Origin: Escherichia phage JS10
Sequence record: EU863409
Length of the DNA: 64,000 nucleotides
Direction: 5' to 3' (one strand)
The translations under genes and the position numbers were made by a program. Below are positions 807 to 38,392 of this stretch, one piece after another. The stretch's first letter is position 1; each line of letters opens with the position of its first letter. The notes under the pieces are model-generated. The model was not told the DNA's origin. It saw nothing but the letters and a program-made list of their open reading frames with translations, and searched no databases.

Positions 807-2789
807 ATGGCTTTATTATCACCGGGCATTGAGCTCAAAGAAACGTCCGTACAGAGTACTGTCGTTCGTAACGCAACGGGTCGTGCAGCGCTGGTTGGTA
901 AATTCCAGTGGGGCCCTGCTTTCCAGGTAACTCAGATTACCAATGAAGTTGAACTGGTTGATTTGTTTGGAGGTCCTAATAACGAAGTAGCAGATTACTT
1001 TATGTCTGGTATGAACTTCCTCCAGTATGGTAATGACCTTCGTACAGTTCGTGTCGTTAGTCGCGAATTTGCTAAAAACGCATCTCCTATCGCTGGTAAT
1101 ATTGAAACCACTATTACTACGGCTGGTTCCAACTATGCTGTAGGCGATAAAATTAATATTAAATATAACCAAACTGTAGTCGAATCTGAAGGTCGTGTGA
1201 CTTCTGTAGATACAGACGGTAAAATTCTTTCTGTGTTTATTCCGTCAGCAAAAATTATTGCTTACGCACGTTCTTTAAACCAGTATCCTACCCTAGGCCC
1301 GGCTTGGACTGCTGAAGTTACTTCTGCCTCTTCGGGTGTTTCTGGTACTATTACCGTAGGTAAAATTGTTACGGATTCTGGTATTCTTTTGACCGAAGCC
1401 GAGAATAGTGAAGAAGCTATTACTTCTCTTGAATTCCAAGCGGCCCTTAAGAAATTTGCTATGCCAGGCGTAGTGGCCCTTTATCCTGGTGAAATTGGTT
1501 CTACTCTGGAAGTAGAAATCGTTTCTAAAGCAGCTTATGAAGCTGGTTCTTCTAAAATGTTGGATGTTTATCCTGGCGGCGGTACCCGTGCTTCTATTGC
1601 CAAGGCAGTATTTAATTACGGACCTCAAACAGATGACCAATATGCTATTATCGTTCGTCGTGATGGTGCTATCGTAGAATCCGTCGTACTTTCTACCAAA
1701 GAAGGTGAAAAAGACGTTTACGGTAATAACATTTATCTTGACGATTATTTCGCTAAAGGTACTTCTAATTACATCTATGCTACCTCGTTAAACTGGCCGA
1801 AAGGATTTAGCGGTATCATTAATCTGTCTGGTGGTATTTCCGCTAACGATAAAGTTACTGCAGGTGATTTGATGCAGGGTTGGGATTTGTTTGCTGACCG
1901 TGAAGCACTCCATATTAACCTGCTTATTGCTGGTGCTGTTGCTGGTGAAGGCGATGAAGTGGCTTCTACTGTTCAGAAACACGTTGTGAGTATTGCTGAT
2001 GAACGTCAGGATTGCTTAGCATTTATTTCTCCTCCTAAAGGTCTGTTGGTTAACGTTCCACTGACTCGTGCAGTAGATAACCTTATCGACTGGCGTACCG
2101 GTGCAGGTACTTTCGATGCCAACAACATGAACATCAGTACCACTTATGCCGCTATTGATGGTAACTATAAATATCAATACGACAAATATAACGACGTAAA
2201 CCGTTGGGTACCACTGGCTGCCGATTTGGCTGGTTTGTGTGCACGTACTGATGATGTGTCTCAGCCTTGGATGTCTCCTGCCGGTTATAACCGTGGTCAG
2301 ATTCTTAACGTTCTGAAATTGGCAATTGAACCACGTCAAGCACAACGTGACCGCATGTACCAGGAAGCTATTAACCCAGTTGTTGGTTTTGCTGGTGGTG
2401 ATGGTTTCGTATTGTTTGGTGATAAGACTGCAACTAAAGTTCCATCTCCGATGGACCACATTAACGTTCGCCGTCTGTTCAACATGCTTAAGAAAAATAT
2501 CGGTGATGCCTCTAAATATAAACTGTTTGAATTGAACGATAACTTCACTCGTTCAAGCTTCCGTATGGAAGTTTCTCAGTACTTAGACGGTATTAAGGCA
2601 CTTGGTGGGATTTATGAAGGACGTGTGGTTTGTGATACTACAGTGAACACCCCTGCGGTTATCGACCGTAATGAGTTTATTGCTAATATCTATGTTAAAC
2701 CTGCTCGTTCTATTAACTACATCACGTTGAACTTCGTTGCAACGAGCACTGGTGCTGATTTTGATGAATTGATTGGACCTTTAGTATAA
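807..2789 (+). CDS. 18: tail sheath protein gp18
   Basis: 660 aa (T4 gp18 about 659 aa); gene order 17-18-19; RBS AAGAGGA upstream. Confidence 0.9.
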   Translation: MALLSPGIELKETSVQSTVVRNATGRAALVGKFQWGPAFQVTQITNEVELVDLFGGPNNEVADYFMSGMNFLQYGNDLRTVRVVSREFAKNASPIAGNIETTITTAGSNYAVGDKINIKYNQTVVESEGRVTSVDTDGKILSVFIPSAKIIAYARSLNQYPTLGPAWTAEVTSASSGVSGTITVGKIVTDSGILLTEAENSEEAITSLEFQAALKKFAMPGVVALYPGEIGSTLEVEIVSKAAYEAGSSKMLDVYPGGGTRASIAKAVFNYGPQTDDQYAIIVRRDGAIVESVVLSTKEGEKDVYGNNIYLDDYFAKGTSNYIYATSLNWPKGFSGIINLSGGISANDKVTAGDLMQGWDLFADREALHINLLIAGAVAGEGDEVASTVQKHVVSIADERQDCLAFISPPKGLLVNVPLTRAVDNLIDWRTGAGTFDANNMNISTTYAAIDGNYKYQYDKYNDVNRWVPLAADLAGLCARTDDVSQPWMSPAGYNRGQILNVLKLAIEPRQAQRDRMYQEAINPVVGFAGGDGFVLFGDKTATKVPSPMDHINVRRLFNMLKKNIGDASKYKLFELNDNFTRSSFRMEVSQYLDGIKALGGIYEGRVVCDTTVNTPAVIDRNEFIANIYVKPARSINYITLNFVATSTGADFDELIGPLV

Positions 2790-35983: not shown

Positions 35984-36001
35984 GAAACAAAAATGGGACT
36001 C
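35984..36001 (-). terminator. hairpin GGGACTC-CGAA-GAGTCCC
   Basis: perfect 7-bp stem, followed by ATTTTT on the minus strand, directly 3' of the 53-aa ORF. Confidence 0.55.
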
Positions 36002-36017
36002 CGAAGAGTCCCATAAC

Positions 36018-36179
36018 TTATGCAATAACTTTACCGAAGCAAGCAGCATCTGCACGCAATACTGCACGAGCACGAGCTTGAAGCTTATCAACTACCTGAT
36101 TGATACGCTTGTTAGACGCACGCTTGTAACCAGCGCGTTTAGAGGTTCCGTCAACTACTTTAACTTCTTTCTTAGCCAT
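36018..36179 (-). CDS. hypothetical 53-aa basic protein
   Basis: translated by hand: MAKKEVKVVDGTSKRAGYKRASNKRINQVVDKLQARARAVLRADAACFGKVIA; AAGAGA RBS; terminator hairpin just 3'. Confidence 0.35.
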   Translation of the reverse strand: MAKKEVKVVDGTSKRAGYKRASNKRINQVVDKLQARARAVLRADAACFGKVIA

Positions 36180-36533
36180 TTTTTAAATCTCTTAAATTAG
36201 GATGCAGGACTTATTGACATTGCCTGCGCAAGCCCTCAAGGGGAACATAGGTTTTAGATATTTAACGACAGGATAACCGTAAACCTCGTCATCATAGCTC
36301 TTATCTGTTGCACACCGTTAGCTTAAAGGTTCCGGGTTCGATTTCTCGAGGATAAGATATATACTGATGGATATATAGGCCTTGAGGCGTACTCCCGATT
36401 GGCCATCACCTCGGGGTAGCATGCACTTGCCGCTATAAAATACCATTCAAGAGGTACACCGTAAAACTGCTGTGGTCTTAAAACTATAATGATTCGCAAA
36501 TCATTAATCAGACAGTTCGACGGCTCCTCGATT

Positions 36534-36782
36534 TTACTTCAGGGTAATAATAAAATGACGTACTGCTTTACGAGCTGCTGAAGCCAAAGGCTTAGCATAT
36601 TTCAGTTCATCTTTTGCTTCCAGTTCAGCAGCCAGAGCGGCCTGAGCCGGATTAAGATGTTTGAAATAACGCAGGATTTCCAGTGCTTCGGCTTCAACAT
36701 CAATAGATGCGCCGTAGTTTTCGTGACCGTTGTTCCAAGCGTTGCGTTGCAGTTCAAGAGCGTGATTCAGATGTTTGTTCAT
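36534..36782 (-). CDS. rIII: rIII (lysis inhibition accessory protein)
   Basis: ORF 36534..36836; internal start MNKHLNHALE gives 82 aa (the T4 rIII length); next to gene 31 as in T4. Confidence 0.65.
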   Translation of the reverse strand: MNKHLNHALELQRNAWNNGHENYGASIDVEAEALEILRYFKHLNPAQAALAAELEAKDELKYAKPLASAARKAVRHFIITLK

Positions 36783-36920
36783 TTTAAATTCTCGATTCGA
36801 GATAAAGATTGGTGGACACGTTCTTCTGAATTTCACTTCCTTTCGGCAAGTCTCTCAGTTGTAGTCCACCGCTTAGGATTCTCCGGTTAACTAACTAGTC
36901 CGGCAGCCAATCCATATTAT

Positions 36921-36928
36921 TATTTATA
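36921..36928 (-). promoter_or_regulatory. late-promoter-like TATAAATA on the minus strand between 31 and rIII
   Basis: exact box on the minus strand, about 140 bp upstream of the rIII ATG. Confidence 0.35.
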
Positions 36929-37252
36929 TCACTTATAAAGACACGGAATAGCTTTATAGTGACAGGTAACGAATTTCTGTTTAATTTCTTTAGGCTGTTT
37001 AATACCTAATGCAACTAAAGGATGTGGCACGTTAGCAATCTTACCAACAGGAAGTGGAGTCAAATCACCTACTTCACAAAAACCTTCAGGGACATCGGGT
37101 CCTACAGAATAAATTTCACAAAGTTCAGGGATTTCACCTTGATGAAGTTTGCCAATAACGATACCAGATGCAGTAGTTTCTTCATCACCAGCTTGTTTTG
37201 GTTCGGAAACGAGAATAACATATTCTCCGACCGCTTTAATAGGAAGTTCCAT
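36929..37252 (-). CDS. 31: co-chaperonin gp31 (GroES analogue)
   Basis: 107 aa; near-identical to T4 gp31 as recalled ([56 protein letters not shown]). Confidence 0.92.
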
Positions 37253-37613: not shown

Positions 37614-37847
37614 TTATTCCAGAATAGTTTTAATAGTGGTTGCATTACGCTCTTTTAGAGCTCTTAATAGGCTATGGCAATTATCAAGAATAGGCACCGT
37701 TTTGTATTTCATGTTGGCATAAACCCACTCAGATTTATAGTACGATTTCCATCGAGAGAAAAAGTACTTTTTGTATTCTACTGAATAGGCTACTAAGCTT
37801 TCACCTTTTGAATTCAGACCTGAAAACTTAACTAGACGAAATTTCAT
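37614..37847 (-). CDS. hypothetical protein (31.2-like position)
   Basis: 77-aa ORF. Confidence 0.4.
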   Translation of the reverse strand: MKFRLVKFSGLNSKGESLVAYSVEYKKYFFSRWKSYYKSEWVYANMKYKTVPILDNCHSLLRALKERNATTIKTILE

Positions 37848-38392
37848 TATTCACCACAATAGTTTTGAATTGATTCCCAGTTCAGAGAACGGAGACCGGT
37901 ACGGTTATACTGGATAACTTCGATGCCGGATTCACGGAGGATATCATCCCACCCTTCAGGATTTCGGTCATAGAGTTCAGCATAAACCAGCGTTTTAATT
38001 CCGGACTGCGCAATAGACTTAGCACAATCTGCACATGGGGACAGTGTCACATACATCGTAGCACCGTCAATAGAACTTCCTGTACGAGCTGCGAACAGGA
38101 TAGCATTCAGTTCAGCATGGATTTCATTTTTGGATGACCATGCGGCATGAGCCATACGATGTTCTTTAAGAAGAATCGATTTATGGGACATTCGTGCCGT
38201 GTCATACACAACACGAGTCCAGTCCTGTTCCACTGCATGGTCACAACAGTTAACACCACCAGACGGAGAACCATTATACCCTGTAGAAATAATGCGACCA
38301 TTCTTTTCAATAACCGCGCCCACTTTCCATGAACAACATTTTGATTCCTGAGAAATCAGATAGGCAATCTGAAGATATGTACTTGCTTTCAT
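37847..38392 (-). CDS. cd: dCMP deaminase
   Basis: 181 aa; zinc-binding deaminase motifs HAELNA and PCADC; position as in T4. Confidence 0.9.
   Translation of the reverse strand: MKASTYLQIAYLISQESKCCSWKVGAVIEKNGRIISTGYNGSPSGGVNCCDHAVEQDWTRVVYDTARMSHKSILLKEHRMAHAAWSSKNEIHAELNAILFAARTGSSIDGATMYVTLSPCADCAKSIAQSGIKTLVYAELYDRNPEGWDDILRESGIEVIQYNRTGLRSLNWESIQNYCGE

Follow-up and report, generated by a model that had tools for sequence, protein, structure and literature searches.

A compact structured RNA, ~145 nt long and folding as an independent unit, is predicted, by comparison of its homologues, to be encoded on the minus strand between the genes rIII and 30.9 of a T4-type phage. It was recognized in the window (the whole 64-kb stretch of DNA analysed here, which comes from a JS98-like Dhakavirus with 99% identity to JS98 and UP19), and in one or other of two forms it is present in about 430 sequenced T4-type phages, with the paired fold kept across at least eight genera. 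In its architecture, a stem (P0) closes a four-way junction, the arms of which are the hairpins P5 and P4 and a three-way sub-domain made up of P1, P2 and P3. The case for this fold is built on paired changes that preserve its helices, on a covarying contact between the loops of P4 and P5, and on the wobble pairs that mark one strand as the folded one.

Setting and distribution

The gap between rIII and 30.9 (36180-36533, 354 bp) lies among genes that all run on the minus strand (Table 1). The original prediction had seen no convincing ORF here, and this is confirmed: the gap ORFs are all short (24, 42, 58 and 30 aa), and no frame is open throughout the homologues. The three perfect hairpins that it quoted, along with a string reminiscent of a tRNA T-loop, were all found letter for letter. 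Perfect 5-bp hairpins number 12 in the gap as against 4.5 +/- 2.7 in mononucleotide shuffles, an approximately 2.7-fold excess, with 12 or more being reached in 8 of 500 shuffles. Only one of the three quoted hairpins, CCCGA...TCGGG, is a part of the structured RNA, the other two lying in flanks that T4 shares.

Table 1. Features of the rIII-30.9 region in window coordinates, listed in the direction of the genes
Feature	Position	Strand	Remarks
cd	37847-38392	-	
gene 31	36929-37252	-	
rIII	36534-36782	-	gene upstream of the RNA module, same strand
AT-rich hairpin AAUGAUU-UGCG-AAUCAUU (AATGATT-CGCA-AATCATT of the original prediction)	36488-36505	-	just past the rIII stop; followed by AUAGUUUUAA; outside the module
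TTTACG-N17-TATTTT	36437-36465	-	early-promoter-like, by motif match only; adjoins P0
Structured RNA module, P0 to P0	36294-36436	-	predicted; ~143 nt
P0, 5' strand AUAGC	36432-36436	-	pairs with GCUAU 36294-36298; closes the module
J0/5	36421-36431	-	single strand; GGCAAGUGCAU here, consensus GGCAAG(U/G)GCAU
P5 hairpin	36387-36420	-	10 bp, two 1-nt bulges, loop 36399-36410; holds CCCGA...TCGGG
CCCGA...TCGGG hairpin	36394-36415		within P5 of the module
Kissing-loop strands	36403-36408 with 36365-36370	-	P5 loop (UGAUGG) with P4 loop (CCAUCA)
J5/4	36378-36386	-	single strand CUCAAGGCC; conserved, GGCC invariant
P4 hairpin UAUAUA/UAUAUA	36358-36377	-	6 bp, loop 36364-36371
P1, 5' strand UCUUAUC	36351-36357	-	pairs with GAUAAGA 36299-36305 (7 bp); encloses P3 and P2
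P3 hairpin UCGA-GAAA-UCGA	36338-36349	-	its plus strand is part of the T-loop-like string
T-loop-like string GGGTTCGATTTC	36334-36345	+	plus-strand letters
P2 hairpin	36312-36337	-	5 bp, bulged U, 15-nt loop GAACCUUUAAGCUAA
J2/1	36306-36311	-	single strand GCAACA; conserved, within invariant GCUAACGGUGNGCAACAG
TTTACG-N17-TATCTA	36255-36283	-	second promoter-like motif
30.9-side flank	36204-36283	-	common to T4
CCCCUUGAGGG hairpin	36233-36243	-	
GCAGG...CCTGC hairpin	36204-36227		outside the module
30.9	36018-36179	-	53-aa basic protein; gene downstream of the RNA module, same strand
Terminator hairpin after 30.9	35993-36014		sole terminator found by scan

A blastn search with the gap matched 992 phage records. 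T4, T2 and T6 match it in two pieces with the centre missing, and in the Klebsiella Jiaodaviruses and the Erwinia phage Cronus the central ~135 bp alone matches, at 91-96% and 80% identity, respectively. When the rIII-30.9 interval of seven phages is aligned, a unit of ~145 bp emerges in Dhaka-, Mosig-, Jiaoda- and Roskildeviruses and in some Tequatroviruses; it is cleanly missing from T4, and its flanks are unalignable between genera. This rIII-type module occurs in 406 of the 1095 phage records encoding rIII (~37% of those searched), always between rIII and 30.9, with one copy per genome region examined, the window included. It is gained or lost as a whole unit, its presence being polymorphic among close relatives, and no target-site duplications were found at the T4 boundary. 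Its absence from T4 and most Tequatroviruses implies that the phages do not require it, at least on laboratory hosts.

As judged from pairwise identities, the module is better conserved than the genes on either side of it. Between the window and the Tequatrovirus SA21RB the module is 99% identical, as against 83% for rIII and 67% for 30.9, and the comparison of Dhaka-, Tequatro- and Mosigviruses as groups gives 99% for the module, 83-90% for rIII and 67-70% for 30.9. With the Jiaodavirus JD18 the module retains 90% identity as against 27-38% for the flanks, and with the Roskildevirus Cronus it retains 77%, the flanks being unalignable. The module is thus conserved across genera, and the pattern of identities indicates that it is under strong purifying selection, helices and joining strands alike.

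A divergent subfamily, scoring 78-84 bits against the covariance model described below, occupies a second locus in the phages JC221 (Yersinia) and Olmo (Klebsiella), 18 other Pseudotevenvirus-type records and two IMG/VR contigs. Here, the module lies downstream of uvsY/uvsY.-2 and directly before the convergent uvsW genes. Each helix differs in sequence from its rIII-type counterpart, but none is lost, and the kissing loop and invariant joining strands are retained too. The unit is portable across loci as well as genera. In Olmo no further element separates the module from a terminator-like hairpin and the convergent genes, and a copy so placed has nothing downstream to regulate. T4 is without the module at both loci, its uvsY.-2-uvsW gap amounting to 55 nt. 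The copy in JC221 (L008, MN508817) sits in a stretch of ~700 nt that is poor in ORFs (~1640-2340, minus strand); a uvsY.-2-like gene lies at one end of it and a strong terminator, bidirectional and at L008 ~1605-1640, at the other, and the remaining ~500 nt of that stretch, over which there is no Rfam or tRNA match, may hold further non-coding elements.

Beyond these carriers, the rIII loci of S16, Pet-CM3-4, Vettismorki and the Providencia, Proteus and Acinetobacter phages have no module, and degenerate-pattern scans of IMG/VR for distant subfamilies returned the known members and two uvsY-type loci (L070 and L071) only. A bacterial copy was sought by pattern scans of 185,579 species genomes, which gave chance matches only (0, then 2: L074 and L075); these two, together with four other pattern-only matches (L019, L023, L063 and L067), are rejected by the model or prove to be unrelated sequence. 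A blastn search of 5,426 complete E. coli genomes, which is insensitive to short complementarity, gave no match.

Fold and strand

Alignment across the related phages shows covariation that preserves the structure. In a MAFFT alignment of 21 distinct sequences, built without any model, 99.3% of 901 cells are standard pairs; both sides have changed in 17 of the 43 pairs, 3 of the 6 kissing pairs among them. None of 500 shuffles did as well, and pairing fell to 28-42% when the partners were slid by 1-3 columns. A covariance model built from this alignment (R1) and searched against the fetched loci added divergent members, namely EcS1 (109 bits), a lineage from IMG/VR (158-161 bits) and the second subfamily. 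Across 28 distinct sequences, 99.2% of cells are paired (25-48% in the slid controls) and 28 of the 37 nested pairs covary; this larger alignment is fitted to R1, which makes the MAFFT result the cleaner control. Some of the covariation counts represent a few events inherited by many genomes: sequence diversity is modest, many members are close relatives, and the signal is dominated by the two subfamilies. On the window itself R1 scores 187.8 bits (E = 3e-48), the single match in 64 kb with filters off, and the match extends with 5-nt flanks over 36290-36441.

The support is spread over all the helices. In P0, 5 of 5 pairs covary (ATAGC/GCTAT, TAAAC/GTTTA, ACAC/GTGT, GTAG/CTAC and others) and 96% of cells are paired; the corresponding values are 8 of 10 pairs and 99.6% of cells for P5, and 4 of 6 pairs and 100% for P4. 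Within the three-way sub-domain, covariation is seen in 5 of the 7 pairs of P1 once EcS1, JC221 and Olmo are in the set, in all four pairs of P3, and in two of the five pairs of P2 (A-U to U-A in Cronus and C-G to U-A in Olmo). The loops vary in places: that of P3 is GAAA in most members but is not strictly kept, GUAA, UAAA and UAAU also being found, and the uvsY-type has a longer P3 stem with a U-rich loop; that of P2 has invariant ends and a variable centre, where phage EcS1 carries a 9-nt insertion. Of the joining strands, J0/5 is near-invariant in both subfamilies, and the junction strands GGCAAGNGCAU, GGCC and GCUAACGGUGNGCAAC are near-invariant as well.

The loops of P4 and P5 are complementary over 6-7 bp in every member, and this kissing contact comes in seven sequence versions: CGAUGG/CCAUCG, UGAUGG/CCAUCA, CAAUGA/UCAUUG, CUAUGG/CCAUAG, CAAUGAU/GUCAUUG, UUGUAUU/AAUACAA (JC221) and UGCAUUU/GAAUGCA (Olmo). 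The last two bear no resemblance to the sequences in the window. Further tertiary pairs were sought by an all-against-all column scan, which was swamped by the phylogenetic correlation between the two subfamilies, and two pairings picked out by eye, a GGCC-GGCC pseudoknot and a UGCA-UGCA pairing, are given no support by the divergent members.

A minimum-free-energy fold of the single minus-strand sequence recovers P0-P4 and most of P5. Its thermodynamic z-score is a modest -1.4 (that of the plus strand being +0.07), so the case for the fold rests on covariation and not on stability. Watson-Crick covariation is strand-symmetric, whereas wobble pairing is not: read in the minus sense, the non-Watson-Crick cells comprise 12 G·U versus 0 A·C in the MAFFT alignment and 23 G·U versus 0 A·C in the larger one, which identifies the minus strand as the one that folds. 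The GAAA/GUAA loop, likewise, is legible as a GNRA loop on the minus strand only. The folded molecule has the same sense as the surrounding genes rIII and 30.9, which points to RNA. The plus-strand fold, implicit in the orientation of the original prediction, was rejected: RNAalifold gives it a partial structure with C·A mismatches that turn into G·U pairs on the minus strand. The suggestion that the gap holds a small RNA is thus strongly supported as regards a conserved, covarying RNA fold, for which the comparison of sequences is the evidence.

Known RNAs and possible function

Rfam 15 (4227 models, those for ribozymes, riboswitches, group I/II introns and phage RNAs included) has nothing above noise over the module, whether in the window, L013 and L070 (E <= 10) or in L008 (E <= 1); the one match nearby, mcrA, falls outside it and reaches 12 bits where the gathering score is 57.6. 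T4-type phages carry tRNA clusters, and ARAGORN found no tRNA or tmRNA genes in the whole window, L008 or L069, so that the T-loop-like string indeed completes no cloverleaf. For tmRNA there is no Rfam match, the local alignment score with E. coli ssrA (17) is on a par with that of shuffled sequences (mean 16.8), and an apparent likeness of GGCAAGUGCAUGC...GGCC to what we take to be the pseudoknot 1 (PK1) region of that RNA proved to be at chance level on test. Antisense matches to the conserved single strands were none beyond chance within the 64-kb window. No published description of the module was found in open-access full text, and T4-type phages go unmentioned in the main text of a catalogue of viral structured RNAs (PMC10690425). 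By these comparisons, the module is related to no catalogued RNA family and is new at the family level, a statement on the family and not on its biochemistry.

A parallel may be drawn with the T4 RNAs rnaC and rnaD (species 1 and species 2), which are likewise phage-encoded, non-coding, ~120-140 nt in length and placed among same-strand genes. To our knowledge, their function is still not known. The likeness does not extend to homology or locus: T4 lacks the present RNA, and R1 run with filters off over T4 69500-73500 gave 5.4 bits at best and nothing over rnaC/rnaD. Moreover, rnaC has a tRNA-like T-arm and the module RNA has none. A second parallel is with the purine and lysine riboswitch aptamers, multi-helix junctions with conserved joining strands organised by the loop-loop contact of two hairpins, which in the lysine aptamer is an L2-L3 kissing loop of six pairs. 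The module shares this architectural principle of a junction plus a kissing loop; however, it has no sequence or covariance-model similarity to the riboswitches in Rfam, no conserved expression platform and no consistent downstream gene.

The best explanation, held here with middling confidence, is that the module yields a stand-alone RNA which, once released from the rIII or uvsY transcript, binds a protein or a ligand. Trimming from the 31-rIII (or uvsY) transcript would probably take place at the AU-rich flanks of the module. The kissing loops would hold the invariant junction nucleotides in place, thereby creating a specific binding surface or pocket, the partner of which could be a conserved host or phage protein or a small ligand, and the module would not act as a cis regulator of 30.9. 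Invariant strands around a four-way junction that is locked by a loop-loop contact are a pattern typical of RNAs with a specific pocket or surface. Further, no sequence following P0 is conserved across genera, and a stand-alone RNA is favoured by the fact that the two loci share neither a downstream gene nor a conserved 3' platform.

A cis-acting element of the polycistronic mRNA, affecting its stability, processing or read-through or serving as a riboswitch, is a real though somewhat unlikely alternative. It might take the form of a 3'-UTR structure that guards the rIII or uvsY mRNA from 3'-to-5' decay or marks a processing site, of an RNA that modifies RNA polymerase for read-through in the manner of the put RNAs, or of a riboswitch-like sensor of read-through into 30.9. 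This would suit the position of the module, which is always co-directional with its neighbours and directly 3' of a coding gene (rIII or the uvsY operon), and which in the window is flanked by a weak hairpin and promoter-like motifs. Yet simple hairpins suffice for 3' protection, and an invariant junction with a tertiary contact points to specific recognition. Nor does any cross-genus expression platform come after the module, which in the uvsY-type has nothing credible downstream before the terminator and the convergent genes, and which in the annotated rIII-type members lies at distances from ~90 to >200 nt from the next start. A riboswitch as such is disfavoured on these grounds, the 3' side of P0 being unconserved between genera and the downstream genes differing (30.9, or none before the terminator). 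An intrinsic terminator was rejected: the terminator scan finds only that of 30.9, and a WebGeSTer 'terminator' inside the SA21RB module is P5, which has no U tract.

It appears improbable that the transcript is processed by the module acting as a new ribozyme, whether self-cleaving or catalytic in some other way. Small self-cleaving ribozymes are often phage-associated, and a compact multi-helix junction with invariant unpaired nucleotides, a loop-loop contact and 5' and 3' ends brought together by P0 would be in keeping with one; against this, no Rfam ribozyme family is matched, which rules out the known classes only, and no cleavage-site signature can be recognised.

Very little probability attaches to an element working at the level of DNA, i.e., a single-strand initiation site or origin, or a packaging or recombination signal, made up of hairpins or a cruciform. 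Watson-Crick covariation would by itself be equally compatible with it, and the second locus is near uvsY, a gene which in T4 contains oriF. However, the strand-specific wobble (23 G·U cells on one strand and 0 on the other), the GNRA-type loop, the four-way junction and the loop-loop interaction of 6-7 bp speak against it, and the first and last of these disfavour the replication or packaging cis element that had been envisaged for this gap. In addition, oriF was defined in T4, a phage with the module at neither locus, and the uvsY-type copy is several hundred bp from the uvsY promoter.

Slimmer still is the chance of a relic in decay and devoid of present function, for instance of a tRNA, an intron or a miniature mobile element. 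Such a relic would account for the presence/absence polymorphism among close relatives, the two loci and the T-loop-like plus-strand string, in which GGGTTCGATT is similar to the T-arm consensus. Nevertheless, it is largely refuted by covariation, with 99% pairing upheld through compensatory changes in at least eight genera and with the module more conserved than its flanking genes; ARAGORN and Rfam are empty, target-site duplications are absent, and there is a single copy per region. The string itself, on the non-folding strand, takes in the 3' side of helix P2 and the 5' side of hairpin P3, and its variants occur with matched partners (TCGA/TCGA, CCGA/TCGG, CTGA/TCAG, CAGA/TCTG). Substitutions in the string are matched by substitutions in the paired stem bases. 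It is not the tRNA remnant that had been proposed. The intron remnant proposed alongside finds no group I or II match, and the presence/absence difference with T4 breaks no gene.

A missed small protein gene, for which there are the 42-aa and 58-aa minus-strand ORFs (36318-36446 and 36323-36499) and short ORFs annotated across the module in the CLB_P2 (58 aa), JC221 and Olmo records, has a next to negligible probability, given at least one stop in each of the six frames of every member, indels of 1 or 3 nt, and ORFs that extend into unconserved flanks.

Returning to the stand-alone RNA, a bolder extension can be offered as a speculation, itself unlikely: the module may be the first representative of a new class of functional RNA, carried by virulent T4-type phages as an optional cassette that moves between genera. 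It would then be either a new ribozyme or a high-affinity aptamer or decoy, the junction pocket of which receives an Enterobacterales-specific host factor or metabolite, for example to counter host defence or to reprogram RNA metabolism. More generally, the module outconserves its neighbours, and its 145 nt combine a four-way junction, invariant joining strands and a kissing loop that covaries; such a profile marks RNAs with a specific biochemistry, be it ligand or protein binding or catalysis. Its function is directly testable by cassette swaps, given the natural knock-outs (T4, T2 and T6) and the natural variants at the second locus, and among the carriers are phages of E. coli, Klebsiella, Enterobacter, Yersinia, Shigella and Salmonella that are candidates for therapy. 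That T4, the reference organism of the group, is without the RNA at both loci is probably why the element has gone unannotated.

Flanks and annotation

The distance from the rIII stop codon to the start of the R1 match is 3 nt in Cronus, 12 nt in KMB17 and 19 nt in EcS1, so in these genera the RNA must be transcribed as the 3' UTR of rIII. In the window, 93 nt separate the stop codon from the module. The AT-rich hairpin just past that codon is reminiscent of a weak terminator, or else of the stem-loop part of a promoter-early stem-loop (PeSL) cassette, and it is also found in T4, which has no module. PeSL cassettes (Arbiol 2010; Comeau 2014) are, like the module, short intergenic non-coding units of T4-type genomes tied to indels between relatives, and in the window the module is flanked by pieces that resemble them, a stem-loop plus TTTACG-N17-TAnnnT. 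The stretch 36437-36505, a hairpin plus TTTACG-N17-TATTTT, would fit their pattern by motif match; the module is not itself such a cassette, a PeSL being a simple terminator hairpin plus a promoter and the module a 145-nt multi-helix fold with tertiary covariation.

The consensus of T4-group early promoters in PeSL cassettes is TTTACW-N17-TAYWAT (PMC4122927). In the motif upstream of the module, which is like this consensus, the -10 abuts P0, as does a promoter-like -10 in several lineages, and a putative start would fall inside J0/5, with transcripts then predicted to be devoid of the 5' strand of P0. This does not fit a simple excised closed unit. T4 retains -35-like TTTACG motifs and has GAATGA at the -10 position, and a generic sigma-70 scan yielded no promoter in the gap region. 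On the other side of the module, the flank with the second promoter-like motif is probably the promoter and 5' UTR of 30.9; it is 91% identical to that of T4, the 30.9 CDS only 67%. Taken together, the non-coding flanks (36204-36291 and 36439-36533) have 91-96% identity to T4 and SA21RB as against 67% for the 30.9 CDS, and have therefore been either far better conserved, as regulatory sequence, or exchanged more recently. The two promoter-like motifs share a direct repeat, GTTT(T)ACGGTnTnCC. A small hairpin motif, ACCC(U)UNNGGGGCUUG, occurs at 36233-36243 in the window, downstream of the module in JD18 (L006) and upstream of it in KMB17 (L026); its position relative to the module varies by genus, and it may be the stem-loop unit of local PeSL-type cassettes. 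Farther upstream, the 146-nt spacer between gene 31 and rIII (36783-36928) has a T4 late-promoter box TATAAATA on the minus strand at ~36920-36929, and a candidate long-range stem, GGUGGAC...GUCCACC, might form in the rIII 5' UTR.

In the records inspected, the region of the module is blank, lies under spurious short ORFs or is labelled 'terminator', and a gene close by bears the label 'glycogen branching enzyme'. Short ORFs or a 'terminator' are placed over the module in CLB_P2 (L002) at 1373-1549, L008 at 2060-2236, L069 at 2455-2586 and 2627-2728, and L003 at 1421-1459; in view of the covariation and the lack of a conserved frame, they are probably false calls. The minimum gain from the present analysis would thus be a new covariance model for phage annotation and the removal of such ORF calls. 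Two protein labels in the neighbourhood also look like annotation-transfer errors: in some GenBank records the homologue of gp30.9, a very basic protein of 53 aa, is labelled '1,4-alpha-glucan branching enzyme', and the 31.1/31.2 homologues are labelled 'tail fiber protein'.
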